A stretch of 64,000 bases of DNA. It comes from Eledone cirrhosa. Taxonomy: Eukaryota. Below the pieces are notes generated by a model, which was not told the DNA's origin, made no database searches, and saw only the letters and a program-made list of their open reading frames with translations. Within the stretch, counting starts at the first letter, position 1; the number at the start of each line of letters is the position of its first letter. A program made the translations under genes and the position numbers. Location: positions 1 to 64,000 of the forward strand of contig CAXHJY010001043.1 in NCBI GenBank assembly GCA_964016885.1. The letters are read 5' to 3'. Positions 2,261 through 56,789 of this stretch are shown here, piece after piece.

Positions 2261-5250
2261 TAATTATTGCTGGCGACCTAAATGGTCACATTGGACAACA
2301 TTGTGACGGCTATGACGGAATCCATGGAGGCTATGGGTTTGGTACTAGAAATGAGGAAGGCTCCAGAATCCTGGAATTGTGACGCAAATAATCTAACTAT
2401 CTGTAACACTAACTTCAAAAAACGAGACAATCACTTGATCACCTACAAATCAGGGGAACACACCAGCCAGGTAGATTATATCCTTACCAGAAGACGTGAC
2501 AGAGTGTCGGTTGTAAACACTAGATACCTCCCCCATGAAGAATGCAGCTCCCAACATAGACTGATAATTAGCGACCTCATAGTCAGGACGAGACGTACTC
2601 GACAGCAGAAGAAGACTATTCTTAGGAGAAAAATATGGAAGCTAAAGGACCCCACAGCCAGAAATAAATTTAAATGCATATTACTTGATGCTTTCGACAG
2701 TAAGGAAGAGCATTTAGAGTCGTACAATATAGAGGAACAGTGGGAATTCCTGAAAGCAAACCTGCTGATGGCGACAGACGAAATCTGTGGCTGGAGCAGG
2801 CCTATAGGCAGGAGGAGAATAACATGGTGGTGGAACAGTAAGGTGGAGGACTCAATTAATGCCAAAAAGCAGGCTTGGAAAGTATGGCGGGATGGGGGAA
2901 GTAGAGAAGACTATCAAGTGGCCAGGAGGGAAGCTAGGAGACAAGTGTACTTCGCAAGAAGGGAAGCAGAGGAAAGAAAGTTCAAGCATGTTCTACAACG
3001 CGAGGACCAAAAACGTGAGGTGTTCAGGATTGCTAGGCAATGTGTCAAGGAAAACCGTGATATTGTCGGGGAGAAGTGTGTACTTAATGAAGATGGCGTA
3101 CTTGCCATCACTGACGCTGATAAGAAGGTAGCTTGGAAGTGTCACTACGAAAGGCTACTAAATGAGGAGAATAAATGGGGGAAAGACAGTCTCCCCCACA
3201 TCGACCCAATAGAGGGACCAGCAGTGTTAGTCGAAGGTAGTATAATAAGTAAGGCAATCAAAGATATGAAGACGGGTAAGGCGGCTGGGCCTTCGGAAAT
3301 AGTTGCTGAAATGCTGAAAGCTTCTGGAATGGTGAGACACACCATGGTCACCCGGATAGTAAACCAAGTCATACAGAATGGGGTTGTTCCAAAGGACTGG
3401 CGTAGCAGCAACATCATTAACTGCTACAAGGGTAAAGGAGACGCCCTAGATAGGAGTAACTATAGAGGCATTAAATTAATCGACCAGGTCATGAAGGTCA
3501 CAGAAAAAGTAATAGCGCAATTAATCAGAGAGAGAATTGATCTAGATGAAATGCAGTTCGGGTTTGTGACAGGTAAAAGTACCATAGATGCTCTTTTCAT
3601 TGTACGACAACTACAGGAGAAGTACCTAGCTTAATGTAAACCCCTATACTTAGCTTTTGTCGACTTGGAAAAGCCTTCGACAGAGTCCCCCCGTTCCATT
3701 ATCTGGTGGGCTCTTAGAAAACTAGGTGTTGATGAATGGCTTGTGAGAGCTATACAAGCCATGTATAAAGAAACAGTCAGCAAGGTTAGAATTAACAACG
3801 AATATAGTGAAGAGTTTAGCGTAAAAGTTGTTGTTCATCAGGGCTCCGTTCTTAGCCCCCTACTATTTATTATTGCCCTTCAGGCTATAACAGTGGAGTT
3901 CAAGACCGGCTGCCCATGGGAACTCCTATACGCAGATGATCTAACGCTCATAGCTGAATCAATGGCCGAACTAGAGAAGAAATTCCAAACATGAAAGCAT
4001 GGCCTAGAATCAAAAGGCCTTAAAATTAACCTGTCTAAGACTAAAGTTCTAGTTTGGAGGAAGGAAAATAGGGCGCCGGTCCCATCTGGGAAATGGCCAT
4101 GCTCAGTGTAGGAAAGGAGTAGGTAGAAACTCCATTTTATGTCCTAAATGCAAAGTATGGGTGCATAAAAGATGTAGTGGGATCACAGGTAAGCTAACTA
4201 AGAACATAGATTTTATATGTGGCCGGTGCTCTGGTGCAATAAGTAGCAGCAAGTGCCCACAGAATACGAGCTCATTGCATTGCACAGATGGTTCTATAGA
4301 AATAGTGGACAGCTTCCGTTACCTGGGTGACAAAATCAGCAGTGGGGGAGGGTGCTCTGAAAGTACAGTAGCTAGAGTCATAACGGGATGGAAAAAGTTC
4401 AGAGAACTTATACCACTATTGGCCGCTAAAGGGTTCTCTCTAAAAATGAAACGCGGGTTGTATGATGCCTGCATACGAACAGCAATGTTGCATGGCAGTG
4501 AGACCTGGGCATTGTGTGCGGAGGATATATGCAGACTGGAGAGGAACGAAGCTTGCATTCTCCACTGGATGTGTAATAGTAATATACGTGAACGGCAAAG
4601 CATAAACGAAGTAAGGGAAAAATTAGAAATAAGAGGGATCAGATGTTGTTTACTCGAGAGAAGACTACGTTGGTATGGTCACGTGATGCGCATGAAAGAC
4701 GACAGCTGTATAAAAATGTGCAGGGCAATAAAAATAGACGGTAGCCACGGAGTAGGCAGACCCAGAAAAACCTGGGACGACTTGATAAATTCCGACCTCA
4801 CACACTTACACCTCTCCAAGACAATGTCACTGGACCGAGACCTTTGGCGCTACACAGTAATAGAGAAGACCCGCCTTACCTAAGTACAAAGTGAAACCTA
4901 CTACAGTCAGTAGGCACCTCTAACAAAATACACCCCCGTCCCACTACCCCCACCCCATCCACACCACCCCTTTCAATGTAAAGTTATGTTGGTACCACAA
5001 CATCCAGCCCGAAACAAATGAGGTTGCGTAGGTTTCACGACAAAAAACACACAGTCCTGTAATGTGGCCGTGTAGGTAACACGGTAAAAACCTCCCAGTT
5101 CCACACTGTAAATGTGGTTGGCGTTAGGAAGGGCATCCAGCCATAGAAAACCCGCCAGACAGTCCTATGCGAGCAAGACAACCACTCTTGCCTCAAGCCG
5201 TCCAAACCCATGCAAGCGTGGAATATGGACGTTAAACGATGATGATGATG
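2261..5250 (+). mobile_element. RTE-clade LINE, 5'-truncated, disrupted (end of APE endonuclease, RT, PHD-like finger, 3'UTR, (GAT)n)
   Basis: GDLNGH, SQVDYIL, NYRGIKL, QFGF, LYADD and FRYLG motifs; stops at 3632 and 3992 and frameshifts near 2377, 3690 and 4107 relative to the 49-52 kb copy. Confidence 0.95.
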
Positions 5251-5625
5251 ATATATATATATAAATATATATATATAAATAAATATATAAATATATATAT
5301 AAATATATATATATAAATAAATATATAAATATATATATAAATATATATAAATAAATATATAAATATATAATATATATAAATATATATAAATAAATATATA
5401 TATAAATATAAATATATATATAACTATATATATAAACATAAATATATATATAACGATATATATAAACATAAATATATATATAACTATATATATAAACATA
5501 AATATATATATAAATAAATATATATATAAATAAATATATATATAAATAAATATATATATAAATAAATATATATATAAATATATATATAAATAAATATATA
5601 TATAAATAAATATATATATAAATAA

Positions 5626-11579: not shown

Positions 11580-11614
<35 letters not shown>

Positions 11615-11625
11615 AATATATATAA
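11160..11625. repeat. (TA)n/(TACA)n microsatellite with a ~20-bp period section
   Basis: aaacatacatatatatatat units. Confidence 0.93.
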
Positions 11626-34357: not shown

Positions 34358-34802
34358 TAAACTCTTTAGCATTTACATTACTCTGTATTTACTATTGAAT
34401 TTTCGCAGTAAAGGCTTTACCTCACATGAATATCTCACATAATATCAAATCTATGAGATTTTGATATTTATTTTGAGAATAATACCTTAACCCTTTAGCA
34501 TTTAAACCGGATGTATCTGGCCAAAATTCTTTCACCTCTTTCTGTTCAAACCGGCTGCAACTGGCCACTCATATTGATGTTTAGGTATTGTTCTCAAAAT
34601 AAATAATATCAAAATCTCCTAGATTCGATATTATGTGAGATAATTATGTAAGATAAAGCCTTTACCATAAAAATACAATAGTATATATAGAGTAATGTTA
34701 ACCAAAGGGTTAACATCAGTATGAGTGGCCAGTTACGACCGGTTTGGACAGAAAGAGGTGAGAGAATTCTGACCAGATACAGTTTAAATGCTAAAGGGTT
34801 AA
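34358..34802. mobile_element. piggyBac-type MITE A with a second MITE A copy (34487..34713) nested in opposite orientation
   Basis: Inner TTAA-ccctttagca...aaaggg-TTAA interrupts aatacc|TTAA|catcagtatg, which is contiguous at 59441-59460. Confidence 0.88.
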
Positions 34803-35178
34803 GGGTACAATGTGGTGCTGGAAATCGAACTCATAACCTCACGACTAAGCACATATCTTCAAAAAATTAATAATAATTAGTCACAGATGGTATTGAATTA
34901 AACCATCATTATGACATATCTGCTTTAATATATTTAATTCAGTAATATAGGAATAGTTATTTACAATTTTGTGATAAGCCATTGCTTATCACAGAAGGAA
35001 CCATAGAGTATCTGCCACATTAAATGTCACAAAACCAAACAAGTTACGTGTCAATGCCACAGGGACAGATCACAGCTAAATAAGACGATCCTCAAATTAC
35101 TAAATCATCTAAAAAAAACTCTCCCATTGAAGAAACAAAACAGTAATAAAATAAAAAAAGAGATAAAATATTACATAC

Positions 35179-35264
35179 AAAGGATCAGGAATTTTGGCAG
35201 CCAAGCCAAAATCAGCAACTATAGCAGTGTAGACATCATCATCAGAAATCTTGATGAGAATATT
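35179..35264 (-). CDS. TESK: TESK-like kinase exon (NILIKISDDDVYTAIVADFGLAAKIPDP)
   Basis: 86 nt, ttctag/gtatgt boundaries, contains DFG; ends in phase 2 matching next exon. Confidence 0.95.
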
Positions 35265-35386
35265 CTAGAAAATAAATACAAAATTGTTCTAAATTTATAT
35301 ATTATTTCAGAATATACTTTAAATGAGGAATTCATTTTTATGAAACCTGTTTGAATGAAACAAAAACTAATTATGAAAAAGTACTT

Positions 35387-38300
35387 ATCATCATCATCAT
35401 CAACGTTTGATGTTTATCTTCCATGCTTGGATGGGTTACACTGGTTGTCTCATGGTGAAGTAAGTCAAGTCTATATTCCCCACTAGCATGGGTTAGACAG
35501 GTTGTCATGTGAGGTAAGTCAGGTCTATATTACATGCTAGCATGGGTTAGACAGGTTGTCATGTGAGGTAAGTCAGGTCTATATTCCATGCTAGCATGGG
35601 TTAGACAAGTTGTCATGTGAGGTCAATCAGGTCTATATTACATGTTAGCATCGGTTAGACAGGTTGTCATGTGAGGTAAATCAGGTCTATATTACATGCT
35701 AGCATGGATTAGACAGGTTGTCATGTGAGGCAAGTCAGGTCTATATGACATGCTAGCATGGGTTAGACAGGTTGTCATGTGAGTTAAATCAGGTCTATAT
35801 TACATGCTAGCATGGGTTAGACAGGTTGTCATGTGAGGTAAGTCAGGTCTATATTCCATGCTAGCATGGGTTAGACAAGTTGTCATGTGAGGTAAGTCAG
35901 GTCTATATTCCATGCTAGCATGGGTTAGACAAGTTGTCATGTGAGGCAAGTCAGGTCTATATTCCATGCTAGCATGGGTTAGACAAGTTGTCATGTGAGG
36001 CAAGTCAGGTCTATATTACATGCTAGCATGGATTAGACAAGTTGTCATGTGAGGCAAGTCAGGTCTATATTACATGCTAGCATGGGTTAGACAGGTTGTC
36101 ATGTGAGGTAAGTCAGGTCTATATTCCATGCTAGCATGGATTAGACAGGTTGTCATGTGAGGCAAGTCAGGTCTATATTACATGCTAGCATGGGTTAGAC
36201 AGGTTGTCATGTGAGGTAAGTCAGGTCTATATTCCATGCTAGCATGGGTTAGACAAGTTGTCATGTGAGGCAAGTCAGGTCAATATTACATGCTAGCATG
36301 GGTTAGACAGGTTGTCATGTGAGGCAAGTCAGGTCTATATTACATGCTAGCATGGATTAGACAGGTTGTCATGTGAGGTAAGTCAGGTCTATATTACATG
36401 CTAGCATGGGTTAGACAAGTTGTCATGTAAGGCAAGTCAGGTCTATATTACATGCTAGCATGGGTTAGACAAGTTGTCATGTGAGGTAAGTCAGGTCTAT
36501 ATTCCGTGCTAGCATGGATTAGACAGGTTGTCATGTGAGGCAAGTCAGGTCTATATTACATGCTAGCATGGGTTAGACAAGTTGTCATGTGAGGCAAGTC
36601 AGGTCTATATTACATGCTAGCATGGGTTAGACAAGTTGTCATGTGAGGCAAGTCAGGTCTATATTACATGCTAGCATGGATTAGACAGGTTGTCATGTGA
36701 GGCAAGTCAGGTCTATATTCCATGCTAGCATGGGTTAGACAAGTTGTCATGTGAGGCAAGTCAGGTCTATATTACATGCTAGCATGGGTTAGACAGGTTG
36801 TCATGTGAGGTAAGTCAGGTCTATATTACATGCTGGCATGGGTTAGACAGGTTGTCATGTGAGGTAAGTCATGTCTATATTACATGCTAGCATGGGTTAG
36901 ACAAGTTGTCATGTGAGGCAAGTCAGGTCTATATTACATGCTAGCATGGGTTAGACAGGTTGTCATGTGAGGCAAGTCAGGTCTATATTACATGCTAGCA
37001 TGGATTAGACAGGTTGTCATGTGAGGTAAGTCAGGTCTATATTCCATGCTAGCATGGATTAGACAGGTTGTCATGTGAGGTAAGTCAGGTCTATATTACA
37101 TGCTAGCATGGATTAGACAGGTTGTCATGTGAGGTAAGTCAGGTCTATATTCCATGCTAGCATGGATTAGACAGGTTGTCATGTGAGGTAAGTCAGGTCT
37201 ATATTCCATGCTAGCATGGATTAGACAGGTTGTCATGTGAGGTAAGTCAGGTCTATATTCCATGCTAGCATGGATTAGACAGGTTGTCATGTGAGGTAAG
37301 TCAGGTCTATATTACATGCTAGCATGGATTAGACAGGTTGTCATGTGAGGTAAGTCAGGTCTATATTCCATGCTAGCATGGATTAGACAGGTTGTCATGT
37401 GAGGTAAGTCAGGTCTATATTCCATGCTAGCATGGATTAGACAGGTTGTCATGTGAGGTAAGTCAGGTCTATATTACATGCTAGCATGGGTTAGACAAGT
37501 TGTCATGTGAGGCAAGTCAGGTCTATATTACATGCTAGCATGGATTAGACAGGTTGTCATGTGAGGCAAGTCAGGTCTATATTCCATGCTAGCATGGGTT
37601 AGACAAGTTGTCATGTGAGGCAAGTCAGGTCTATATTCCACGCTAGCATGGATTAGACAGGTTGTCATGTGAGGCAAGTCAGGTCTATATTCCATGCTAG
37701 CATGGGTTAGACAAGTTGTCATGTGAGGCAAGTCAGGTCTATATTACATGCTAGCATGGGTTAGACAGGTTGTCATGTGAGGTAAGTCAGGTCTATATTA
37801 CATGCTGGCATGGGTTAGACAGGTTGTCATGTGAGGTAAGTCATGTCTATATTACATGCTAGCATGGGTTAGACGGGTTGTCATGTGAGGTAAATCAGGT
37901 CTATATTACATGCTAGCATGGGTTAGACAGGTTGTCATGTGAGGCAAGTCAGGTCTATATTACATGCTAGCATGGGTTAGAGAGGTTGTCATGTGAGGTA
38001 AGTCAGGTCTATATTACATGCTAGCATGGGTTAGACAGGTTGTCATGTGAGGCAAGTCAGGTCTATATTCCATGCTAGCATGGGTTAGACAGGTTGTCAT
38101 GTGAGGCAAGTCAGGTCTATATTCCATGCTAGCATGGGTTAGACAGGTTGTCATGTGAGGCAAGTCAGGTCTATATTACATGCTAGCATGGGTTAGACAG
38201 GTTGTCATGTGAGGTAAGTCAGGTCTATATTCCATGCTAGCATGGATTAGACAGGTTGTCATGTGAGGCAAGTCAGGTCTATATTACATGCTAGCATGGG

Positions 38301-41300
38301 TTAGACAGGTTGTCATGTGATGTAAGTCAGGTCTATATTCCATGCTAGCATGGGTTAGACAAGTTGTCATGTGAGGCAAGTCAGGTCTATATTACATGCT
38401 AGCATGGGTTAGACAGGTTGTCATGTGAGGCAAGTCAGGTCTATATTACATGCTAGCATGGGTTAGACAAGTTGTCATGTGAGGCAAGTCAGGTCTATAT
38501 TACATGCTAGCATGGGTTAGACAAGTTGTCATGTGAAGCAAGTCAGGTCTATATTACATGCTAGCATGGATTAGACAAGTTGTCATGTGAGGCAAGTCAG
38601 GTCTATATTCCATGCTAGCATGGGTTAGACAAGTTGTCATGTGAGGCAAGTCAGGTCTATATTACATGCTAGCATGGGTTAGACAGGTTGTCATGTGAGG
38701 TAAGTCAGGTCTATATTACATGCTAGCATGGGTTAGAGAGGTTGTCATGTGAGGTAAGTCAGGTCTATATTACATGCTAGCATGGGTTAGACAGGTTGTC
38801 ATGTGAGGCAAGTCAGGTCTATATTCCATGCTAGCATGGGTTAGACAGGTTGTCATGTGAGGCAAGTCAGGTCTATATTCCATGCTAGCATGGGTTAGAC
38901 AGGTTGTCATGTGAGGCAAGTCAGGTCTATATTACATGCTAGAATGGGTTAGACAGGTTGTCATGTGAGGTAAGTCAGGTCTATATTACGTGCTAGCATG
39001 GGTTAGACAGGTTTTCATGTGAGGTAAGTCAGGTCTATATTACGTGCTAGCATGGATTGGACAGGTTGTCATGTGAAGTAAGTCAGGTCTATATTACGTG
39101 CTAGCATGGGTCAGACAGGTTGTCATGTGAGGTAAATCAGGCCTATATTACATGCTAGCATGGATTAGACAGGTTGTCATGTGAGGCAAGTCAGGTCTAT
39201 ATTACGTGCTAGCATGGGTTAGACAGGTTGTCATGTGGGGCAAGTCAGGTCTATATTCCATGCTAGCATGGATTAGACAGGTTGTCATGTGAGGCAAGTC
39301 AGGTCTATATTACATGCTAGCATGGGTTAGGCAGGTTGTCATGTGAGGCAAGTCAGGTCTATATTCCATGCTAGCATGGATTAGACAGGTTGTCATGTGA
39401 GGTAAGTTAGGTCTATATTACATGCTAGCATGGGTTAGACAGGTTGTCATGTGAGATAAGTCAGGTCTATATTACATGCTAGCATGGGTTAGACAAGTTG
39501 TCATGTGAGGTAAGTCAGGTCTATATTACATGCTAGCATGGGTTAGGCAGGTTGTCATGTGAGGCAAGTCAGGTCTATATTACGTGCTAGCATGGGTCAG
39601 ACAGGTTGTCATGTGAGGTAAATCAGGTCTATATTACATGCTAGCATGGATTAGACAGGTTGTCATGGGAGGCAAGTCAGGTCTATATTACGTGTTAGCA
39701 TGGGTTAGACAGGTTTTGATGTGAGGTAAGTCAGGTCTATATTACATGCTAGCATGGGTTAGACAGGTTGTCATGTGAGGTAAGTCAGGTCTATATTACA
39801 TGCTAGCATGGATTAGACAGGTTGTCATGTGAGGTAAATCAGGTCTATATTACGTGCTAGCATGGGTTAGACAGGTTGTCATGTGAGGCAAGTCAGGTCT
39901 ATATTACATGCCAGCATGGATTAGACAGGTTGTCATGTGAGGTAAGTCAGGTCTATATTATGTGCTAGCATGGGTCAGACAGGTTGTCATGTGAGGTAAA
40001 TCAGGTCTATATTACATGCTAGCATGGAATAGACAGGTTGTCATGGGAGGCAAGTGAGGTCTATATTACGTGCTAGCAAGGGTTAGACAGGTTGTCATGT
40101 GAGGCAAGTCAGGTCTATATTCCATGCTAGCATGGATTAGACAGGTTCTCATGTGAGGTAAGTCAGGTCTATATTCCATGCTAGCATGGGTTAGACAGGT
40201 TGTCATGTGAGGTAAGTCAGGTCTATATTACATGCTAGCATGGATTAGACAGGTTGTCATGTGAGGCAAGTCAGGTCTATATTACGTGGTAGCATGGGTT
40301 AGACAGGTTGTCATGTGAGGCAAGTCAGGTCTATATTCCATGCTAGCATGGATTAGACAGGTTGTCATGTGAGGTAAGTCAGGTTTATATTCCATGCTAG
40401 CATGGGTTAGACAGGTTGTCATGTGAGGTAAGTCAGGTCTATATTACATGCTAGCATGGATTAGACAGGTTGTCATGTGAGGTAAGTCAGGTCTATATTA
40501 CATGCTAGCATGGATTAGACAGGTTGTCATGTGAGGTAAGTCAGGTCTATATTACATGCTAGCATGGATTAGACAGGTTGTCATGTGAGGTAAGTCAGGT
40601 CTATATTACATGCTAGCATGGATTAGACAGGTTGTCATGTGAGGCAAGTCAGGTCTATATTACATGCTAGCATGGGTTAGACAGGTTGTCATGTGAGGCA
40701 AGTCAGGTCTATATTACATGCTAGCATGGATTAGACAGGTTGTCATGTGAGGCAAGTCAGGTCTATATTACATGCTAGCATGGGTTAGACAGGTTGTCAT
40801 GTGAGGCAAGTCAGGTCTATATTCCATGCTAGCATGGGTTAGACAGGTTGTCATGTGAGGCAAGTCAGGTCTATATTCCATGCTAGCATGGATTAGACAG
40901 GTAGTCATGTGAGGTAAGTCAGGTTTATATTCCATGCTAGCATGGGTTAGACAGGTTTTCATGTGAGGTAAGTCAGGTCTATATTACATGCTAGCATGGA
41001 TTAGACAGGTTGTCATGTGAGGCAAGTCAGGTCTATATTACATGCTAGCATGGATTAGACAGGTTGTCATGTGAGGCAAGTCAGGTCTATATTACATGCT
41101 AGCATGGGTTAGACAGGTTGTCATGTGAAGCAAGTCAGGTCTATATTACATGCTAGCATGGATTAGACAGGTTGTCATGTGAGGCAAGTCAGGTCTATAT
41201 TCCATGCTAGCATGGGTTAGACAGGTTGTCATGTGAGGCAAGTCAGGTCTATATTCCATGCTAGCATGGGTTAGACAGGTTGTCATGTGAGGCAAGTCAG

Positions 41301-44300
41301 GTCTATATTACATGCTAGCATGGGTTAGACAGGTTGTCATGTGAGGTAAGTCAGGTCTATATTACATGCTAGCATCGATTAGACAGGTTGTCATTTGAGG
41401 TAAATCAGGTCTATATTACGTGCTAGCACGGGTTAGACAGGTTGTCATGTGAGGCAAGTCAGGTCTATATTACATGCCAGCATGGATTAGACAGGTTGTC
41501 ATGTGAGGTAAGTCAGGTCTATATTACGTGCTAGCATGAGTCAGACAGGTTGTCATGTGAGGTAAATCAGGTCTATATTACATGCTAGCATGGATTAGAC
41601 AGGTTGTCATGTGAGGCAAGTCAGGTCTATATTCCATGCTAGCATGGATTAGACAGGTTGTCATGTGAGGCAAGTCAGGTCTATATTACATGCTAGCATG
41701 GGTTAGGCAGGTTGTCATGTGAGGCAAGTCAGGTCTATATTCCATGCTAGCATGGGTTAGACAGGTTGTCATGTGAGGTAAGTCAGGTCTATATTACATG
41801 CTAGCATGGGTTAGACAGGTTGTCATGTGAGGTAAGTCAGGTCTATATTACATGCTAGCATGGATTAGACAGGTTGTCATGTGAGGCAAGTCAGGTCTAT
41901 ATTACATGCTAGCATGGATTAGACAGGTTGTCATGTGAGGCAAGTCAGGTCTATATTACATGCTAGCATGGGTTAGACAGGTTGTCATGTGAGGCAAGTC
42001 AGGTCTATATTACATGCTAGCATGGATTAGACAGGTTGTCATGTGAGGCAAGTCAGGTTTATATTACATGCTAACATGGATTAGACAGGTTGTCATGTGA
42101 GATAAGTCAGGTATATATTACATGCTAGCATGGGTTAGACAAGTTGTCATGTGAGGCAAGTCAGGTCTATATTACATGCTAGCATGGATTAGACAGGTTG
42201 TCATGTGAGGCAAGTCAGGTCTATATTCCATGCTAGCATGGATTAGACAGGTTGTCATGTGAGATAAGTCAGGTCTATATTACATGCTAGCATGGGTTAG
42301 ACAGGTTTTCATGTGAGATAAGTCAGGTCTATATTACATGCTAGCATGGGTTAGACAAGTTGTCATGTGAGGCAAGTCAGGTCTACATGCTAGCATGGAT
42401 TAGACAGGTTGTCATGTGAGGCAAGTCAGGTCTATATTACATGCTAGCATGGATTAGACAAGTTGTCATGTGAGGTAAGTCAGGTCTATATTCCATGCTA
42501 GCATGGATTAGAGAGGTTGTCATGTGAGGTAAGTCAGGTATATATTACATGCTAGCATGGATTAGACAGGTTGTCATGTGAGGTAAGTCAGGTCTATATT
42601 ACATGCTAGCATGGGTTAGACAGGTTGTCATGTGACGTAAGTCAGGTCTATATTACATGCTAGCATGGGTTAGACAGGTTGTCATGTGAGGCAAGTCAGG
42701 TCTATATTCCATGCTAGCATGGGTTAGACAGGTTGTCATGTGAGGCAAGTCAGGTCTATATTCCATGCTAGCATGGGTTAGACAGGTTGTCATGTGAGGC
42801 AAGTCAGGTCTATATTACATGCTAGCATGGGTTAGACAGGTTGTCATGTGAGGTAAGTCAGGTCTATATTACGTGCAAGCATGGGTCAGACAGGTTGTCA
42901 TGTGAGGTAAATCAGGTCTATATTACATGCTAGCATGGATTAGACAGGTTGTCATGTGAGGCAAGTCAGGTCTATATTACGTGCTAGCATGGGTTAGACA
43001 GGTTGTCATGTGAGGCAAGTGAGGTCTATATTCCATGCTAGCATGGATTAGACAGGTTGTCATGTGAGGTAAGGCAGGTCTATATTCCATGCTAGCATGG
43101 GTTAGACAGGTTGTCATGTGAGGTAAGTCAGGTCTATATTACATGCTAGCATGGATTAGACAGGTTGTCATGTGAGGCAAGTCAGGTCTATATTATGTGC
43201 TAGCATGGATTAGACAGGTTGTCATGTGAGGCAAGTCAGGTCTATAATACGTGCTAGCATGGATTAGACAGGTTGTCATGTGAGGCAAGTCAGGTCTATA
43301 TTACATGCTAGCATGGGTTAGACAGGTTTTCATGTGAGGTAAGTCAGGTCTATATTACGTGCTAGCATGGATTAGACAGGTTGTCATGTGAGGTAAGTCT
43401 GGTCTATATTACGTGCTAGCATGGGTCAGACATGTTGTCATGTGAGGTAAATCAGGTCTATATTACATGCTAGCATGGATTAGACAGGTTGTCATGTGAG
43501 GCAAGTCAGGTCTATATTACGTGCTAGCATGGGTTAGACAGGTTGTCATGTGAGGCAAGTCAGATCTATATTCCATGCTAGCATGGATTAGACAGGTTGT
43601 CATGTGAGGCAAGTCAGGTCTATATTACATGCTAGCATGGGTTAGACAGGTTGTCATGTGAGGCAAGTCAGGTCTATATTCCATGCTAGCATGGATTAGG
43701 CAGGTTGTCATGTGAGGTAAGTCAGGTCTATATTCAAAGCTAGCATGGGTTAGACAGGTTGTCATGTGAGGTAAGTCAGGTCGATATTACATGCTAGCAT
43801 GGATTAGACAGGTTGTCATGTGAGGCAAGTCAGGTCTATATTACATGCTAGCATGGATTAGACAGGTTGTCATGTGAGGCAAGTCAGGTCTATATTACAT
43901 GCTAGCATGGGTTAGACAGGTTGTCATGTGAAGCAAGTCAGGTCTATATTACATGCTAGCATGGATTAGACAGGTTGTCATGTGAGGCAAGTCAGGTCTA
44001 TATTCCATGCTAGCATGGGTTAGAGAAGTTGTCATGTGAGGCAAGTCAGGTCTACATTACATGCTAGCATGGATTAGACAGGTTGTCATGTGAGATAAGT
44101 CAAGTCTATATTACATGCTAGAATGGGTTAGACAAGTTGTCATGTGAGGAAAGTCAGGTCTATATTACATGCTAGCATGGATTAGACAGGTTGTCATGTG
44201 AGGTAAATCAGGTCTATATTACATGCTAGCATGGATTAGACAGGTTGTCATGTGAGGTAAGTCAGGTCTATATTACATGCTAGCATGAATTAGACAGGTT

Positions 44301-47300
44301 GTCATGTGAGGCAAGTCAGGTCTATATTACATGCTAGCATGGGTTAGACAAGTTGTCATGTGAGGCAAGTCAGGTCTATATTACATGCTAGCATGAATTA
44401 GACAGGTTGTCATGTGAGGCAAGTCAGGTCTATATTACATGCTAGCATGGATTAGACAGGTTGTCATGTGAGATAAGTCAGGTCTATATTACATGCTAGC
44501 ATGGATTAGACAAGTTGTCATGTGAGGCAAGTCAGGTCTATATTACATGCTAGCATGGGTTAGACAAGTTGTCATGTGAGGCAAGTCAGGTCTATATTAC
44601 ATGCTAGCATGGATTAGACAGGTTGTCACGTGAGGCAAGTCAGGTCTATATTACATGCTAGCATGGATTAGACAAGTTGTCATGTGAGGTAAGTCAGGTC
44701 TATATTCCATGCTAGCATGGGTTAGACAGGTTGTCATGTGAGGTAAGTCAGGTCTATATTCCATGCTAGCATGGGTTAGACAGGTTGTCATGTGAGGTAA
44801 GTCAGGTCTATATTACATGCTAGCATGGGTTAGACAGGTTGTCATGTGAGGTAAGTCAGGTCTATATTACATGCTAGCATGGATTAGACAGGTCGTCATG
44901 TGAGGCAAGTCAGGTCTATATTACATGCTAGCATGGATTAGACAGGTTGTCATGTGAGGTAAGTCAGGTCTATATTACATGCTAGCATGGATTAGACAGG
45001 TTGTCATGTGAGGCAAGTCAGGTCTATATTACGTGCTAGCATGGGTTAGACAGGTTGTCATGTGAGGTAAATCAGGTCTATATTACATGCTAGCATGGGT
45101 TAGACAGGTTATCATGTGAGGTAAATCAGGTCTATATTACATGCTAGCATGGGTTAGACAGGTTGTCATGTGAGGCAAGTCAGGTCTATATTACATGCTA
45201 GCATGGATTAGACAGGTTGTCATGTGAGGCAAGTCAGGTCTATATTACATGCTAGCATGGATTAGACAGGTTGTCATGTGAGGCAAGTCAGGTCTATATT
45301 ACATGCTAGCATGGGTTAGACAGGTTGTCATGTGAGGCAAGTCAGGTCTATATTACATGCTAGCATGGATTAGACAGGTTGTCATGTGAGGCAAGTCAGG
45401 TCTATATTACATGCTAGCATGGATTAGACAGGTTGTCATGTGAGGCAAGTCAGGTCTATATTACATGCTAGCATGGGTTAGAAAGGTTGTCATGTGAGGC
45501 AAGTCAGGTCTATATTACATGCTAGCATGGATTAGACAGGTTGTCATGTGAGGTAAGTCAGGTCTATATTACATGCTAGCATGGATTAGACAGGTTGTCA
45601 TGTGAGGTAAGTCAGGTCTATATTACATGCTAGCATGGGTTAGACAGGTTGTCATGTGAGGCAAGTCAGGTCTATATTACATGCTAGCATGGGTTAGACA
45701 AGTTGTCATGTGAGGTAAGTCAGGTCTATATTACATGCTAGCATGGGTTAGACAGGTTGTCATGTGAGATAAGTCAGGTCTATATTACATGCTAGCATGG
45801 ATTAGACAGGTTGTCATGTGAGGTAAATCAGGTCTATATTACATGCTAGCATGGATTAGACAGGTTGTCATGTGAGGTAAGTCAGGTCTATATTACATGC
45901 TAGCATGGATTAGACAGGTTGTCATGTGAGGTAAGTCAGGTCTATATTCCATGCTAGCATGGATTAGACAGGTTGTCATGTGAGGTAAGTCAGGTCTATA
46001 TTACATGCTAGCATGGATTAGACAGGTTGTCATGTGAGGTAAGTCAGGTCTATATTACATGCTAGCATGGATTAGACAGGTTGTCATGTGAGGTAAGTCA
46101 GGTCTATATTCCATGCTAGCATGGATTAGACAGGTTGTCATGTGAGGTAAGTCAGGTCTATATTCCATGCTAGCATGGATTAGACAGGTTGTCATGTGAG
46201 GTAAGTCAGGTCTATATTACATGCTAGCATGGATTAGACAGGTTGTCATGTGAGGTAAGTCAGGTCTATATTACATGCTAGCATGGATTAGACAGGTTGT
46301 CATGTGAGGTAAGTCAGGTCTATATTACATGCTAGCATGGATTAGACAGGTTGTCATGTGAGGTAAGTCAGGTCTATATTACATGCTAGCATGGATTAGA
46401 CAGGTTGTCATGTGAGGTAAATCAGGTCTATATTACATGCTAGCATGGATTAGACAGGTTGTCATGTGAGGTAAGTCAGGTCTATATTACATGCTAGCAT
46501 GGATTAGACAGATTGTCATGTGAGGTAAATCAGGTCTATATTACATGCTAGCATGGATTAGACAGGTTGTCATGTGAGGTAAGTCAGGTCTATATTACAT
46601 GCTAGCATGGATTAGACAGGTTGTCATGTGAGGTAAGTCAGGTCTATATTCCATGCTAGCATGGATTAGACAGGTTGTCATGTGAGGTAAGTCAGGTCTA
46701 TATTACATGCTAGCATGGATTAGACAAGTTGTCATGTGAGGTAAGTCAGGTCTATATTCCATGCTAGCATGGATTAGACAGGTTGTCATGTGAGGTAAGT
46801 CAGGTCTATATTCCATGCTAGCATGGATTAGACAGGTTGTCATGTGAGGTAAGTCAGGTCTATATTACATGCTAGCATGGATTAGACAGGTTGTCATGTG
46901 AGGTAAGTCAGGTCTATATTACATGCTAGCATGGATTAGACAGGTTGTCATGTGAGGTAAGTCAGGTCTATATTCCATGCTTGCATGGATTAGACAGGTT
47001 GTCATGTGAGGTAAGTCAGGTCTATATTACATGCTAGCACGGATTAGACAGGTTCTCATGTGAGGCAAGTCAGGTCTATATTATGTGCTAGCATGGATTA
47101 GACAGGTTGTCATGTGAGGCAAGTCAGGTCTATATTACATGCTAGCATGGATTAGACAGGTTCTCATGTGAGGCAAGTCAGGTCTATATTACATGCTAGC
47201 ATGGATTAGACAGGTTGTCATGTGAGGTAAGTCAGGTCTATATTACATGCTTGCATGGATTAGACAGGTTGTCATGTGAGGTAAGTCAGGTCTATATTAC

Positions 47301-47520
47301 ATGCTAGCATGGATTAGACAGGTTCTCATGTGAGGCAAGTCAGGTCTATATTACATGCTAGCATGGATTAGACAGGTTGTCATGTGAGGCAAGTCAGGTC
47401 AGGTGACCACGTCTTGCTCATACATATCTGAATATTGGCTTGATTCCTACAGCTGGATGCTCTTCCTAATGCCAACCACATTAGTGTAGACTGGGTGCTT
47501 TTTTATCGTGGCACCAAAAC
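35387..47520 (-). mobile_element. Single RTE-partner SINE copy split by the satellite (tail at 35387-35475, body at 47400-47520)
   Basis: Left flank (cat)n-caacgttt...ccatgc; right flank gtcttgctcat...ggcttgattcctacagctggatgctcttcctaatgccaacc, collinear with the reverse complement of 54770-54937. Confidence 0.85.
35475..47400. repeat. 54-bp-unit tandem satellite, ~220 copies, SINE-derived
   Basis: Unit catgctagcatgg(g/a)ttagaca(g/a)gttgtcatgtgagg(t/c)aagtcaggtctatatt(a/c); 18-aa periodicity in the ORF track. Confidence 0.99.
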
Positions 47521-48171
47521 AACCATCTAACAGGGTGGAATGGGTGCTTATATTATCACTGGAGTAGCTTATGAGGCTGTATACCCATATTTTATTAAAT
47601 GTATCATTTCAAGTTTTTCTTCCAATGTTTTTCCACAACTAAACACTAAAATGTTGCAGTTCCAAAATATTTATAATTATTTGTAAAATTTTGTTGAGCT
47701 AGCTGCTTTGGGAATTACACTCGAGTAAGATGTACTCTGTCAAGTTCCTGTGTGTATTATTGTCTGTGAAGACTCAAAGGTTTGTTTTCAATAATGATAA
47801 TTTTACAAAGTCATTCAGAAGCCTTGATAGATGCATTTTAGCCTAGAACAACAACAAACATTTTAGATCAATTTTCCTGCTACATTAAGGGTTAGACTAG
47901 TCGGACTCACAACATGTTTCATTGTGATCATGGGGTCCATTTTGGGATGAATGTTTAATAGCTGGATTTCCTTCCTAACCCAACTCAGGGATATTCTGAA
48001 CTAGATACATGTAACAAAGATGTATCTTACTCTAGGTGGATACAAAATTGTGTTTGTACAGTTCGGCTGATTTTTAATCTAAAACCTTGAGATCAACTGC
48101 CTTGTTCTTTGGCTATATCTCCCCAAATTCAGTATCTTATAATTAAGATAGAAATGAATATTATCACAAAC

Positions 48172-48321
48172 CTTTGATGTTAAATCCCGATGGAAAACTC
48201 CTCTTGTGTGAAAATAACGCATTCCATTAGAAATGTCGAGCGCTAGATTTATACGGGTTTTCCATGGCAGTTCTATTTCTTTGTCAGCCAACACTTGGTA
48301 TAGAGCTCCTCCATTTATGTA
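48172..48321 (-). CDS. TESK: TESK-like kinase exon (YINGGALYQVL...GVFHRDLTSK)
   Basis: 150 nt, ttgcag/gtttgt boundaries; HRDLTSK(N) catalytic loop is diagnostic of TESK (LIMK has DLNSHN). Confidence 0.96.
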
Positions 48322-48388
48322 CTGCAAATAAAAAATAATAACATATACTGTATATATCATCATCATCTTTTAATGATATATATATATA

Positions 48389-48920
48389 TTGTCAACTCTT
48401 ATTAAATGGTCAGTCGACTTCTACGAAAATGTAATGTATAATATAACATTTTCTTCTTGTCTCCTAAACCCTCGGTTCATTCATCCATATATCTACAACC
48501 GTTGCTATCCTATAATTCTGTCTCACTGTTCTAAATAATCTTCTCTTTGCTAAACTCTGTCTCACTCCACGCTTGTTCTAAATAATCTTCACTTTGCTAC
48601 CATTTTGGCCGAAAATTTTTTCCAGGATTCATAAAAATAGATTCTCTCGCTCCTCAAAATCGCTATTACCCCCCACTCTCTCTAACATATACGTCCCTCT
48701 CTCTCTCTCACTCCCTAATATAAATAAGAATGTTACGAAGGACAAAACTCAGAATTTGTCAACTCTTATTAAATGGTCAGTCGACTTCTACGAAAATGTA
48801 ATGTATAATATAACATTTTCTTCTTGTCTCCTAAACCCTCGGTTCATTCATCCATATATCTACAATCGTTGCTATCCTATAATTCTGTCTCACTGTTCTA
48901 AATAATCTCCTCTTTGCTAA
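48389..48920. repeat. 165-bp direct repeat pair (48389-48553, 48756-48920)
   Basis: Near-identical copies 367 bp apart, starting at a (TA)n edge. Confidence 0.9.
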
Positions 48921-48999
48921 CTAGTCCATCCCCCTCCCTCCCGCCCCCACTCTCCACATTATTTGGACCAATCACAAGTCAACGGCCTATGCTATCACT

Positions 49000-51999
49000 T
49001 CTGGCTGCTTTTCGATATGATGGATGGACTAAGGAATTTCTGGATAGTCTGAAGAATCTGGACACTCGACAATGCCAAAGATAACGACAAATTCACCTCA
49101 TGTTGCCGGACGAAAGGGCAAGGCCCCCTCTTCTTTGTTTCGGCCGCGGATGGCCAACATAAACCCCCCCCCCCCCCCCCTGCGCCCCATCCTCCAAACA
49201 CAATCCAAAACTTCAGAGTTGGTACCATGAATGTAGGCACCTTAAAAGGCCGCTCTAACGAGGTTGTAGAAATGCTTGAACGTAAGGAGGTTGATGTTTG
49301 CTGTATCCAACAGACCAGGTGGAGGGGCGGGTCTGCTAGATTCATTGTGGGTAAAAAACGTTGCTATAAGCTTTTCTGGGTGGGAAATGACAATGGGATA
49401 GGTGGGGTAGGAATCATGTTAGCAGAAAAATGGGTGGATAAGATAATAGATGTAAATAGAGTGAATGACAGAATAATTAAATTAAGACTTGTTCTAAACA
49501 GAACTACTGTGACAGTAATATCTGCATACGCGCCCCAATCCGGACTGCCTGGCGCTATAGAAGACAGATTCTATGAGACACTGATGCTCACTACCTCCCA
49601 AATAACCGACAGTGACTATATAATTATTGCTGGCGACCTAAATGGCCATGTTGGACAACATTGTGATGGTTATGATGGAATCCACGGAGGCTATGGGTTT
49701 GGTACTAGAAACGAGGAAGGCTCCAGAATCCTGGAATTCTGTGATGCAAATAACCTAACTATCTGTAACACTAACTTCAAAAAACGAGACAATCACTTGA
49801 TCACCTACAGATCAGGGGAACATACCAGCCAGGTAGATTATATCCTTACCAGAAGACGTGACAGAGTGTCTGTTGTAAACACTAAATCTCTGTGGCTGGA
49901 GCAGGCCTGTAGGCAGGAAGAGAGTAACATGGTGGTGGAACAGTAAGGTGGAGGAGTCAATTAAGGCCAAAAAGCAGGCTTGGAAAGTATGGTGGGATGG
50001 GGGAAGTAGAGAAGACTATCAAGTGGCCAGGAGGGAAGCTAGGAGACAAGTGTACTTCGCAAGAAGGGAAGCAGAGGAAAGAAAGTTCAAGCATGTTCTA
50101 CAACGCGAGGACCAAAAACGTGAGGTGTTCAGGATTGCTAGGCAATGTGTCAAGGAAAACCGTGATATTGTCGGGGAGAAGTGTGTACTTAATGATGATG
50201 GCGTACTTGCCATCACTGACGCTGATAAGAAAGTAGCTTGGAAGTGTCACTACGAAAGGCTACTAAATGAGGAGAGAGAATAAATGGGAGAAAGACAGTC
50301 TCCCCCACATTGACCCAATAGAGGGACCAGCAGTGTTAGTCGAAGGTAGTATAATAAGTAATGTAATCAAAGATATGAAGACGGGTAAGGCGGCTGGGCC
50401 TTCAGAAATAGTTGCTGAGATGCTGAAAGCCTCTGGAACGGTGGGACACACCATGGTCACCCGGATAATTAACCAAGTCATACAGAATGGGGTTGTTCCG
50501 AAGGACTGGCATAGCAGCATCATCGTTAACTGTTACAAGGGTAAAGGAGATGCCCTAGATAGGAGTAACTATAGAGGCATTAAATTAATCGACCAGGTCA
50601 TGAAGGTCACGGAAAAAGTAATAGCGCAACTAATCAGAGAGAGAATTGATCTAGATGAAATGCAGTTCGGGTTTGTGTCAGGTAAAAGTACCACAGACGC
50701 TTTTTTCATTGTACGACAACTACAGGAGAAGTACCTAGCTAAAAGTAAACCCCGATACTTAGCTTTTGTCAACTTGGAGAAAGCCTTCGACAGAGTCCCC
50801 CGTTCCATTATCTGGTGGGCTCTTAGAAAACTAGGTGTTGATGAATGGCTTGTGAGAGCTATACAAGCCATGTATAAAGAAACAGTCAGCAAGGTTAGAA
50901 TTAACAACGAATATAGTGAAGAGTTTAGCGTAAAAGTTGGAGTTCATCTGGGCTCTGTTCTTAGCCCCCTACTATTTATTATTGCCTTTCAGGCTATAAT
51001 AGTGGAGTTCAAGACTGTCTGCCCATGGGAACTCCTATACGCAGATGATCTAACGCTCATAGCTGAATCAATGGCTGAGCTAGAGAAGAAATCCCAAACA
51101 TGGAAGCACGGCCTAGAATCAAAAGGCCTTAAAATTAACCTGGCTAAGACTAAAGTTCTAGTTTGTAGGAAAGAAAATAAGGCGGCGGTCCCTTCTGGGA
51201 AATGGCCATGCTCAGTGTGTAGGAAAGGCGTAGGTAGAAACTCCATTTTATGTCCTAAATGCAAAGTATGGGTGCATAAAAGATGTAGTGGGATCACAGG
51301 TAAGCTAACTAAGAACATAGATTTTACATGTGGCCGGTGCTCTGGTGCAATTAGTAGCAGCAAGTGCCCACAAAATACTAGCTCTTTCAATTGCGCAGAG
51401 GGTTCTATAGAAATAGTGGACAGCTTCCGTTACCTGGGTGACAAAATCAGCAGTGGGGGAGGGTGCTCTGAAAGTACAGTAGCTAGAGTCAGAACTGGAT
51501 GGAAAAAGTTCAGAGAGCTTATACCACTATTAGCCGCTAAAGGGTTCTCCCTAAAAATGAAAGGCAGGCTGTATGATGCCTGCATACGAACAGCAATGTT
51601 GCATGGCAGTGAGACCTGGGCATTGTGTGCAGAGGATATATGCAGACTGGAGAGGAACGAAGCTTGCATGCTCCACTGGATGTGTAATAGTAATATACGT
51701 GAACGGCAAAGCATAAACGAAGTAAGGGAAAAATTAGAAATAAGAGGGATCAGATGTTGTTTACTCGAGAGAAGACTACGTTGGTATGGTCACGTGATGC
51801 GCATGAAAGACGACAGCTGTATAAAAAAGTGCAGGGCAATAAAGATAGACGGTAGCCACGGAGTAGGCAGACCCAGAAAAGACTGGGACGACCTGATAAA
51901 TTCCGACCTCACACACTTACACCTCTCCAAGACAATGTCACTGGACCGAGATCTTTGGCGGTACTCAGTAATAGAGAAGACCCGCTGATGATGATGATG
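49000..51999 (+). mobile_element. RTE-clade LINE, near full-length: APE endonuclease, RT and PHD-like finger; internal deletion; 3'UTR missing
   Basis: GTMNVGTL, SAYAPQ, GDLNGH, SQVDYIL (APE); ORF 50267..51988 RT with YADD; (TGA)n tail; 5' boundary uncertain. Confidence 0.96.
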
Positions 52000-52009
52000 A
52001 TATATATAT

Positions 52010-52161: not shown

Positions 52162-52166
<5 letters not shown>
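52010..52166 (+). mobile_element. Short TA-embedded repeat (same family as 10572 and 57561)
   Basis: Shares both sub-blocks with 57547-57848. Confidence 0.8.
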
Positions 52167-52214
<48 letters not shown>

Positions 52215-52216
<2 letters not shown>

Positions 52217-54431
52217 GACTCCCACTCTTACCTCGACTTCACCTCTTCCCACCCCACCCACACTAAACTCTCCATTCCCTACTCCCAACTTCTCAGGATC
52301 CGCCGCCTCTGTAGCCGAGATGCTGACTTCGAGTCCCAGGCCCTTTCCCTAGTCAGCTATTTCATCCGCAGAGGTTACCTCCCCTCTCTCGTCCACACCG
52401 CTCTCACCCGCGCCCGTGCTATCCCCCGCTCCACCACCCTCACCCCACGCCACCGCACACCCACCCACCGTCTCCCCTTCCCCCGCACCATCCGCCGCCT
52501 CTTCCGACACCTCCAGTCCGACCCCTCCACCTCCCACATCTTCCCAACCCCACCACTCCCCTCCTTCAAACGCGCACGCAATCTCCGCACCCTCCTCGTC
52601 CACAGCTCCCTACCCCCCCCCCCGGTTCCTTCCCCTGTTCTAGGCCCGGCTGGAACACCTGTCCCCACATCACCAACACCACCACCTTCCAGGGTCCCAA
52701 CGGCCACCCTCTCTCGGTCCGGCATGCCTTCCGCTGCACCTCCTCCAACCTAGTCTACGGACTTCGTTGCACGAGGTGCAGCGCGACTTATGTCGGACAG
52801 ACGGGACGCCGCCTGGCGGACCGAGTCACGGAGCACCTCCGGGACATTCGTCTCGGGGGCAGTTCCCCCATCGCCCGCCACTTTGGTGGCCCTGGACACT
52901 CCGCACGCCATCTCACAGTCTGTGGCCTACTCCAGTGCCACGGAACACCCGCCCATCGCCTTACGGTCGAACAACGTACTATCTTCATCCTTCAGACCCA
53001 CACTCCCCCCGGCCTGAACTCCCCACCCTTATTCCTTTAGCGTTCGACCGCCCCCTCCCCCACACTTATCCCCCACTAACACACCCCTCCTTTTCACCGC
53101 CCACCCCACACTAACAATACTAACACCTCCACTCCACCCCTCATCTGACCACCCTTCCCCAACTAACATACTAACATCCCTTCCCTCCCCTCTTCTCCTC
53201 CTCCCCCCTCCTTATCACACGCACCCACTTACACCACCCACCCCACACGCAACTAACATCACTAACAACCTCCAACCCCACGCACACGTACCCACACACC
53301 CTCGTACACCACCAACTCTACACACCCTACCCCCACTCACACCTGCATTCCACCCCTCCCCACCTCCCGTATACTAACACCCACTAACACCTCTCCACCA
53401 AACTACACACACACCAGTACACCACACTCCCTCCATAGAACCACACACACTCTTCTCTCCCCACTCCACACTCACTCATCCCACTAACACCCCTACTAAT
53501 ACACACACACACACCCTCCTCACTCCAACTCTCACACCTACCCATCCTCGCCTCCCTACCATTCCGCCGACTGCTGCTATGCCCTTCCGACCACTGTCTC
53601 AGCACCAACTGACCACAGCACTTCCACTGCTGACCACTTCCTGTTGCGTGCGCACCCCACATCTCTCCTCTTCCGACCACCGCTTCTTGGATTACCCACA
53701 CGCGTTTTGACTTCTAACCAAAATCTCCATACATCCGTGTAACTTACCACTTTCAACCATCCTCTTACACCATCACCTATATAACTCACCCACACACACA
53801 CCCCAAAACAATTTTTTTTATCCACACGCCACCCACACCCACAACACGCTTAAACCACACACACGTGCTTCCACCACATATTTACACCCTCAGCCCCCTG
53901 ATTCCTCTCCCCCCACCCCCCTATCCACACACGCACAGACCCTCCAACCCACATAAACCCCCCCCACACACACCTTCCTGAACATGCAACCCCGTTCTTC
54001 CCCCAACCCTCACTTTCACATACACACACACACACGCACACCACCTTCAGCCCTCCCCGCTCGGACACCCCGTCTCCCTCTCCCCACTCCACCCGCCACC
54101 ACCTCTACTCACCACACACCCTTCCACCACCTGTTTACCCCCCTTTTAATTTCAGTTTATTTTGATCATGCCTTTATTTTTAAATTTTCTCATTCCTTGT
54201 ATTTTGATCATGCTTTATTTTTATTTATTATTTATTATATTTTTGTCTTTATTTGTTAATTTTTCATTCGCACTGTTTCCTTTCGCTATATGTCTCTCCA
54301 CCACTCCCCTACACACCTTTTGAACTCTCACCTGAAGAAGGGCTTATGCCCGAAACGTCGTCCCCCACCTACCCCCCACTCTCCTGAGCGTGAATTTAAT
54401 AAACATTTATCGTACTGCCTCTCTGTTCTGT
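52215..54431 (+). mobile_element. Penelope-like retroelement, 5'-truncated (RT C-terminus, Cys linker, GIY-YIG endonuclease, C-rich 3' region, terminal repeat with hammerhead)
   Basis: TDSHSYLDFTSSHP...IPYSQLLRIRRLCS; after a poly-C frameshift (~52620) FRCTSSNLVYGLRCTRCSATYVGQTGRRLADRVTEH...PGLN, stop at 53040; (TA)n on both sides. Confidence 0.92.
54328..54362 (+). ncRNA. Minimal hammerhead ribozyme core in the Penelope-like terminal region
   Basis: CTGAAGA-a-GGGC ttat GCCC-GAAA-CGTC; stem I only ~2 bp. Confidence 0.72.
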
Positions 54432-54447
54432 CCCTGTTCAATTTTTC

Positions 54448-54505
<58 letters not shown>

Positions 54506-54509
<4 letters not shown>

Positions 54510-54937
54510 TTAGTGGTTTGAGCATTGGGCTTGCAATCGAAAAGGTTGTGAGTTCAATTCTCAGACCGGGTGATGTGTTGTTTCCTTGCGCAAGACACTT
54601 TATTTCACATTGCTCCAGTTTACCCGGCTGTAGAAATGAGATGAGAGGACTGGGGTCCCTATCATTCCACTGCAAAGTGGTCGTGGAGGTGCCGCGGCAA
54701 AAAAGCACCCAGCCCACACTGTAAAGTGGACATGTAGGCGCCACGGAAGAACAAGCACCAGCACTCACTGTAAATGAGGTTGGTGTTAGGAAGGGCATCC
54801 AGCTGTAGAAATCAAGCCAGAATCAGTTACCACATGAGCAAGACAAGGTCAGCTGACTGGACACTGCTCACAACAGGACAACCCGTCTAACCCATGCTAG
54901 CGTGGAAGAACGGACGTATGATGATGATGATGATGAT
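54506..54937 (+). mobile_element. Near full-length tRNA-derived SINE with RTE-type 3' end
   Basis: A and B boxes at 54506-54562; 3' ccatgctagcgtggaagaacggacgtatgatgatg. Confidence 0.88.
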
Positions 54938-55037
54938 AATATATATATATTTGTTTGAACAAATTAATCTGTTAAAATAATAAATATTTGCTCTGCAGCT
55001 TTGTAAATTATTGCATATAAATACACACACATGTATG

Positions 55038-56219: not shown

Positions 56220-56575
56220 CATCATCATCATCATCAACAACATCACTATTTAATGTCCATTTTTCCACCTTAGCATAGTCTAGATGAGTTGTCCAGTTGT
56301 GAGACAAGCCAGACCATGTCTTGCTCATACTGGACTGATTTGGGCTTGTTTTCTACAGATGGATACCCTTCCTAACACCAACCACATTTTCAGAACGGAC
56401 TGGGTGCTTTTTATCATGACACCTACGCGACCATTTTACAGTGTGAGCTGGGTGCTTTTTGACATGACACCTACATGAATACTTTACAGTGTGGACTCAG
56501 TGCTTTTAGCCATGACACCTACATGACCACTTTACAGTGTGGACTCGGTGCTTTTTGTCATGACACCTACATGAT
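56220..56575 (-). mobile_element. RTE-partner SINE with an internal ~45-bp tandem expansion (4 copies)
   Basis: (cat)n tail; repeated acagtgtggact.ggtgctttt..catgacacctaca. Confidence 0.78.
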
Positions 56576-56789
56576 TTCATTTATTTTACTACAAACAATA
56601 TTTAGGTACAAAGCCAGCAATTTTATGTGAGAGAAAAACCAATGAAATCAACCTCAGTAATTGACAGGGACATTATTTTATCGATTTCAAAAGGACAATA
56701 GACAAAACTATGTTTGTGGTGTATGTGTGTGTGTGTATATATACATATATATATACATATATATATGCCCCCACACCCCCCACCCCCCA

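Follow-up and report, generated by a model that had tools for sequence, protein, structure and literature searches.

Tandem arrays whose units derive from short interspersed nuclear elements (SINEs) have already been described. In squamates, SINE-derived satellites (sSat1-3) were reported from 56 genomes, where individual loci contained 320, nearly 950 and over 1200 units; an uncommon variant carried both SINE termini around the tandem units, and Supplementary Fig. 8B of that paper (PMC10702118) is the closest layout to the one reported here. Minisatellites derived from Alu and B1 are known from human and mouse (Jurka and Gentles 2006; Bois 1998; cited in PMC6947457 and PMC3389668). Among bivalves, SINE arrays of 2–15 units were found, 659 of them in introns of Scapharca broughtonii (PMC11481361). 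For octopus, the SINEs OR1 and OR2, derived from transfer RNA (tRNA), were reported (Ohshima and Okada 1994, cited in PMC4758252 and PMC4824008), as were long interspersed nuclear elements (LINEs) of the RTE type, e.g. RTE-2_OV (PMC9115989). No published case of a cephalopod SINE-derived satellite was found in the open-licence literature. Here we describe an array of 54-bp units in an intron of a TESK kinase gene, located on a 64,000-nucleotide stretch of Eledone cirrhosa DNA (contig CAXHJY010001043.1, hereafter the window). It was concluded that the array quite probably consists of about 222 head-to-tail copies of the tail-adjacent segment of one old, headless retroposon, likely a SINE; the segment was likely duplicated once between two GTC trinucleotides, and the array then probably expanded, as a neutral passenger, through unequal exchange and gene conversion.

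The octopod array behaves like the known SINE-derived satellites and minisatellites, and the new element is the host, a cephalopod. As in the squamate sSats (PMC10702118), the unit is part of a tRNA-derived SINE family sequence and shorter than the SINE, the terminal units run into SINE sequence, and arrays are common to orthologous sites (in squamates, between congeners). There are 220 middle monomers, compared with at least four in the sSat description, and they differ by 5.4% on average, compared with 21–33% between the locus and other family copies. The terminal unit is extended on both sides, by the tail on the left and by 149 bp of element body on the right. The uniformity is also similar, with 94% in the 320-unit cobra locus and 94.6% here. 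In contrast, squamate units are about 67–290 bp long, and the octopod unit comes from a LINE-shared region adjoining the tail, which is unlike the squamate case; long squamate sSats tend to be subtelomeric, whereas this array lies in a mollusc, in the intron of a conserved gene. With the Alu- and B1-derived minisatellites it shares the array of an internal SINE segment, present at a single locus in the window, and also, as it would appear, a first duplication between short direct repeats followed by growth through slippage, conversion or unequal crossing-over. However, human Alu-derived repeats average 2.3–2.4 units, compared with about 222 here, and the flanking repeat of the octopod array is only 3 bp (GTC), short of the 5–10 bp that PMC6947457 quotes for the Haber-Louis model. 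The bivalve arrays (PMC11481361) are likewise molluscan, SINE-derived, directly repeated and found in introns, but they are built from nearly whole SINEs, often with target-site duplications in between, and not from a 54-bp internal piece. The resemblance of the parent family to OR1, OR2 and RTE-2_OV is one of description, not of consensus sequence: the host group is the same, the head is tRNA-like, and RTE-type LINEs occur in octopus genomes.

It was originally predicted that a 12-kb satellite of about 220 units, amplified from inside a single SINE, fills more than 90% of the 12.9-kb intron between HRDLTSK and N. Tandem Repeats Finder reported a period of 54, 222.0 copies, 95% matches and 0% indels over 35415-47400, and phasing on GTC resolved 220 units of 54 bp, one of 49 bp and one edge unit of 57 bp. 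A 30-base junction motif matched 218 times in the window, compared with 0 times in 100 shuffles. The array was thus borne out at its predicted place. Its span (35412-47400, 11,989 bp) makes up 92.9% of the intron, in agreement with the predicted share, and begins 147 bp from the splice acceptor. The array was also predicted to be a length-polymorphic VNTR, for which it is a candidate. No second array of the unit was present in the 64-kb window, and the junction motif gave 0 matches in metagenome contigs. The coordinates of the main features are collected in the table below.

Table. Features of the array, its host retroposon copy and the surrounding TESK gene (positions in the window).
Feature	Position	Strand	Remarks
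TESK exon 3' of the array intron	35179..35264	-	NILIKISDDDVYTAIVADFGLAAKIPDPL; tblastn with octopod TESK2, 96%
Splice acceptor of the array intron		-	TTTTCTAG
(GAT)n tail and 3' end of host retroposon copy	35387..35411	-	122 bp from the splice acceptor
Decayed edge unit	35412..35468	-	57 bp; 44/54 aligned letters equal the array consensus; 3 extra letters, close to the family length
Array proper	35469..47400	-	220 x 54 bp, plus a 49-bp unit at 42381 and GTC at the end
Remaining LINE-shared 3' region of host element	47401..47549	-	149 bp; 5'-truncated inside the 49-bp internal repeat of the family; headless
Array intron, between ...HRDLTSK and NILIK...	48171 to 35265	-	GT..AG, 12,907 bp
TESK exon with HRDLTSK at its end	48172..48321	-	96% to TESK2 of Argonauta hians and Octopus sinensis; Pfam PK_Tyr_Ser-Thr
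Reference full-length family copy	54507..54938	+	tRNA-like head (54506-54564), internal 49-bp repeat, (GAT)n tail
RTE-like LINE remnant, reference	2265..5252	+	3' untranslated region shares about 265 nt with the SINE, amplified segment included

Inspection of both ends of the array confirmed that a retroposon tail lies to its left and the element body to its right, although the right end of the element, given as 47520, is actually at about 47549. The last array unit passes into the body without a seam. The unit quoted in the original prediction lacked the last 7–8 bases of the 54-mer. The unit consensus gave local scores of 50 against the family copy at 54.9 kb and 39 against that at 29.0 kb, compared with maxima of 28 and 31 in 1000 shuffles each, so that the alignment to these two copies, cited in the prediction, was upheld. 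When the array was collapsed in silico to the tail, one unit and the body, the resulting sequence was collinear over its whole length with the 57.0-kb copy (178/226 identical), nothing being missing or doubled. Identities with the other family copies were 170/230 (54.9 kb), 169/221 (56.2 kb) and 137/181 (29.0 kb), and those with LINE ends were lower (151/219, 144/204 and 146/217). The trinucleotide GTC, a 3-bp direct repeat, bounds the amplified segment at the junctions of the locus, and it does so too in two copies that are unexpanded (54.9 and 57.0 kb).

The parent family showed the features of a tRNA-derived SINE, i.e. a tRNA-related head and a LINE-shared 3' region with a simple-repeat tail. 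The head of the reference copy matched positions 8-63 of the Rfam tRNA model with an E value of 0.038 and 22.4 bits, which is below the gathering score of 29, and the same head was observed at 6563 and about 14389. No tRNA gene was called by ARAGORN, and the other Rfam matches at 54400-55000 were dismissed as noise from AT runs. By BLAST of 54507-54940 against the window, 23 matching stretches were obtained, self included. The last 265 nt of the SINE aligned with the 3' untranslated region (UTR) of the reference LINE at 69% identity over 267 columns (E 1.6e-28). Endonuclease, reverse-transcriptase and PHD-like domains are encoded both in this LINE and in a relative of greater length at 49053-52002; they are called RTE-like from the domain architecture and the tail, not from a tree. 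Three copies in the window, at 0.86, 5.2 and 9.0 kb, are LINE ends. On these alignments, the segment that was amplified belongs to the LINE-shared 3' region and lies directly against the tail.

The array units differed from each other by 2.9 of 54 bases on average (the mean pairwise 5.4% given above), and 87 distinct variants were found among the 220. At four high-frequency variant sites all allele pairs were present, with four of the six site pairs unlinked (p > 0.2). Rare variants recurred tens of units apart; for example, 26C was observed in units 68, 77, 84, 113, 137 and 147. Adjacent units were barely more alike than shuffled ones (2.60 versus 2.91 differences, 0 of 2000 shuffles being as low). 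A higher-order repeat was rejected, because no lag stood out (2.6 differences at lags 1–2 and 2.65–3.0 beyond). The longest identical run common to two places was four units, and there was a single indel in 12 kb. Minor differences per unit amounted to 0.39 at one end, 0.90 in the middle and 0.35 at the other end, both ends being cleaner, and the last 40 units were the most uniform. This shuffling of variants, of the kind known from recombining minisatellites, would fit many rounds of unequal exchange and gene conversion, the parts near the ends having grown recently. A perfect palindrome of 12–16 bp was present in 184 of the 220 units; a hairpin as the driver of amplification was unsupported, because the consensus unit folded no better than shuffles (z of 0.08; z of –1.8 for the C10/A24 variant).

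Four of 23 sequencing runs, which comprised short-read contigs and restriction-site-associated DNA sequencing, were compared over 34810-35580, namely X1 (organism A), X4 (organism B), X6 (organism C) and X18 (organism F); three runs of restriction-site-associated DNA sequencing were left out. In X1, possibly the source sample, a 731-bp contig equalled 34810-35505 with 0 differences and spanned the flank, the tail, the edge unit and the first unit, indicating that the left junction is not an assembly seam. In X4, the flank differed by about 8–10%. Record 18 of this run aligned to 35043-35391 (29 differences, 34 gap letters), from the flank into the tail, and 21 letters past the tail it aligned to 35482-35559 (9 differences, 3 gaps) before it ended; it bridges the junction between two units, where 41 letters lie to one side and 37 to the other. 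Two further X4 contigs also span this junction. Because the contig of organism B joins the flank to the tail and to tandem units at this very site, both the insertion and the initial duplication, and with them the tandem, are older than the split of A and B. In X6, two contigs of 83–84 bp matched 35515-35580 with 2 differences each (97%), at an unplaced locus; in X18, only family copies were found among the matches listed (32 of 4,284). The summed contig depth in the array-specific bin 35564-35580 was 11,400 in X1, 2,101 in X4, 10 in X6 and 47.5 in X18, with a single-copy flank depth of about 10, 15 and 5.5 in X1, X4 and X6, respectively; the summed depth is no copy number, and SINE copies dominate the other bins.

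A possible course of events can be outlined. A 5'-truncated copy of about 230 nt, which is seen in place and in sense orientation, would have entered an ancient intron in a single insertion. The segment of 54–57 bp bounded by GTC at both sides could then have been doubled by replication slippage or by a slip of the reverse transcriptase at insertion. The organism B contig with its flank, tail and tandem units shows that this doubling preceded the split from B. The inner unit, 3 bp shorter, might later have been amplified and homogenised, with the left edge unit left behind, as the present pattern suggests, and splicing of the intron would remove the array as a whole.

Several observations weigh against this course. 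The GTC repeat is below the length of the Haber-Louis model, and by our own arithmetic a direct repeat of 3 bp or more would occur at about 5% of random junctions. No target-site duplication was detected around the host copy, the best exact matches being 5–6 bp in AT-rich flanks; this is weak evidence, because the host copy is old. The edge unit agreed with the last array unit in 44/57 columns, and the 54.9-kb copy agreed with the same unit in 43/57. A AAGTCAGGTC stretch common to the edge unit and the array was also found in loose ends of many other genomic copies (X1, X4), so that it is a subfamily trait and not private to the locus, and the proposal of private shared characters of edge unit and array was dropped. 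In organism B, no unit like the edge unit of A stood behind the tail, implying a turnover of the edge in one of the lineages. None of the four runs compared showed an unexpanded allele at the array site; the flank contig of X6 stops before the SINE site and X18 had no flank contig among the matches listed, so that these two do not bear on the presence of the SINE. Finally, neutrality would follow from the absence of evidence for a function. The predicted birth of the array inside a single retroposon is supported, with qualifications: collinearity, the GTC boundaries and the tandem in the second species support birth in one copy, while a single insertion is likely but not proven, given the missing target-site duplication and an edge unit that is barely closer to the array than unrelated copies are.

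These same observations leave some room for an origin from two templates, in which the tail with the edge unit and the array with the body came from two family RNAs or insertions, joined at GTC either because the template was switched in target-primed reverse transcription or because one copy inserted next to an older one. In that case the pair would have been in tandem from the start, and the second copy alone amplified. Reverse transcription of LINEs starts at the tail, and the duplicated segment lies directly against it. The lack of a target-site duplication and an edge unit that is about as far from the array as unrelated copies are (77% versus 61–75%) would also agree with two templates, and it has been suggested that retrotransposition may trigger tandem repetition (PMC3389668). 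Nevertheless, the part to the right would need to be missing the tail and nothing else, and the collinearity is exact; among all window copies the edge unit is still nearest to the array; and array-like units stand directly behind the tail in organism B. Moreover, terminal units of old arrays often escape homogenisation. We regard the two-template origin as improbable; it keeps this much weight because the edge unit matches the array hardly better than the 54.9-kb copy does and because AAGTCAGGTC is present in other copies. Another view concerns the label of the host element, which might be the 3' end of an RTE-type LINE; the growth of the array would be the same, and this view overlaps with the preferred explanation. 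All 231 nt of the collapsed host fall inside the SINE/LINE-shared region, the tRNA head is missing at the locus, the headless 56.2-kb copy is 76% identical, and the tree gives no resolved grouping of the locus with the headed SINEs (support of 0.1–0.64). But the host copy is 74–79% identical to the SINE-type copies at 54.9, 57.0 and 29.0 kb, compared with 67–71% to the three certain LINE ends, and it has a block that is present in these copies and absent from the LINE ends. Among the three, the head occurs in the 54.9-kb copy only, and the subfamily closest to the host copy is of the GAGGCAAGTCAGGTCAGGTGACC type; the tree placement is unsupported. The host element, predicted to be a SINE, is thus closer to SINE-type copies, but it is called a SINE by similarity only, because it is headless and lies entirely within the LINE-shared region. 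On these comparisons it is likely a SINE, and the LINE label is unlikely to be the right one.

The array could also be a mobile satellite of many loci, born elsewhere and recombined by homology into a resident SINE copy. In snakes, one SINE-derived unit may occupy up to thousands of loci (PMC10702118), and the two unit-like contigs of organism C are unplaced. However, these contigs have only 7–8 aligned letters left of the junction, under the 31-letter rule for bridging, both SINE termini flank the array in register with a seamless last unit, and the window holds no second array, so a mobile satellite is considered highly improbable. Equally, we give very little credit to the view that the array is real and its length an assembly artefact, either over-expanded or collapsed. 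Contigs do break within the array, and long loci depend on assembly quality according to PMC10702118; in contrast, the number of variants, the short shared runs and the single indel are not the pattern of duplicated or noisy sequence, and the window contains 0 N. Amplification within one retroposon copy is accordingly preferred over these alternatives.

Further features of the retroposon family were observed in the window. The pieces at 865-1741, 2265-5252, 8535-9050 and 49053-52002 belong to one RTE-like LINE family, and in the longest of them (GAT)n follows straight after the open reading frame (ORF), without the 370-nt 3' UTR of the other pieces. An internal tandem repeat of 48–50 bp, in about 1 to 3.7 copies, occurs in the SINE/LINE family at 54668-54774, 56397-56574, 56779-56891 and 16909-16966, indicating that short tandem duplication is common in this family. 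The SINE copies at 6240-6563 and 16793-17025 are of a subfamily lacking about 50 nt; the missing stretch overlaps the amplified segment, and this region is indel-prone across the family copies. (TA)n arrays adjoin one or both ends of the younger LINE and SINE copies (1-856, 1730-2262, 5251-7457, 9049-11624, 52165-52214 and 54450-54506), which suggests either insertion into TA microsatellites or TA runs grown from element ends. Between two (TA)n runs, a C-rich element at 52215-54450 has broken ORFs without a Pfam match, which we take to resemble a Penelope-type GIY-YIG endonuclease. A second clean minisatellite (60873-61771, 50 bp x 18, 93% matches) was unmatched elsewhere in the window, and six other minisatellites there (19–83 bp) had no dispersed-repeat match beyond their own neighbourhood, or none at all.

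The gene around the array was identified as a TESK kinase by its kinase domain, its HRDLTSKN loop and TESK proteins as best matches. On the minus strand, between 57406 and 27681, eight coding stretches of octopod TESK2 proteins follow each other in the expected order; each of them is open and well conserved, with the long last exon showing 91% identity to O. sinensis and 82% to Argonauta. The matches to Argonauta hians and Octopus sinensis indicate an octopod host. Among 121 proteins, 47 were short TESK homologues of 220 aa or less; after HRDLTSK, 37 of the 47 continued with V and 9 with N, and one, the query, ended. In the 37 running into V, the sequence was taken to continue through a GT donor that many animals have at this position, which points to an old intron position. 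The HRDLTSK/N position would thus be ancient, the array probably playing no part in it, and the array as the cause of the split catalytic loop was rejected on this ground. The second-largest TESK intron of the window, about 9.0 kb, is itself filled by retroelements. In the intron next to the array intron, an element resembling a miniature inverted-repeat transposable element, with long terminal inverted repeats (taaccctttagcatttaaac ...), was found at 34480-34805. By eye, a direct duplication of about 170 bp (48380-48570 and 48755-48925) was seen in the intron upstream of the HRDLTSK exon. At about 27860-27930, the last exon contains a 30-bp tandem duplication giving 10 extra residues (SPSDSFDTCI-like) that are absent in O. 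sinensis and Argonauta.

No function of the array was evident, and the reading frame and splice sites of TESK were intact. ACTTACCT, which is complementary to the consensus of splice donors, occurs in 85 exact copies along the sense strand of the intron, the first of them about 230 nt away from the acceptor; we presume a likeness to the 5' end of U1 small nuclear RNA. These copies are weak evidence, because one short match per 54-bp unit has been multiplied by the amplification, and a splicing role of the array seems scarcely credible. It is also very doubtful that the tail-adjacent segment has repeatedly served as the seed of satellites, being doubled by the reverse transcriptase upon insertion and founding long intragenic arrays at many octopod loci, and that the present array tunes TESK splicing through the ACTTACCT copies. 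The array is likely a harmless passenger.

No new mechanism is indicated by these results, which extend SINE-derived satellites of hundreds of units to cephalopods. The record of birth can be read at this locus: both parent ends and the boundary of the duplication are preserved, an edge unit persists as a relic, and a second species has an orthologous tandem. This makes it a good test locus for the passage from a retroposon piece to a satellite. The array is a candidate for a highly variable marker, and it represents one route by which octopod introns swell.

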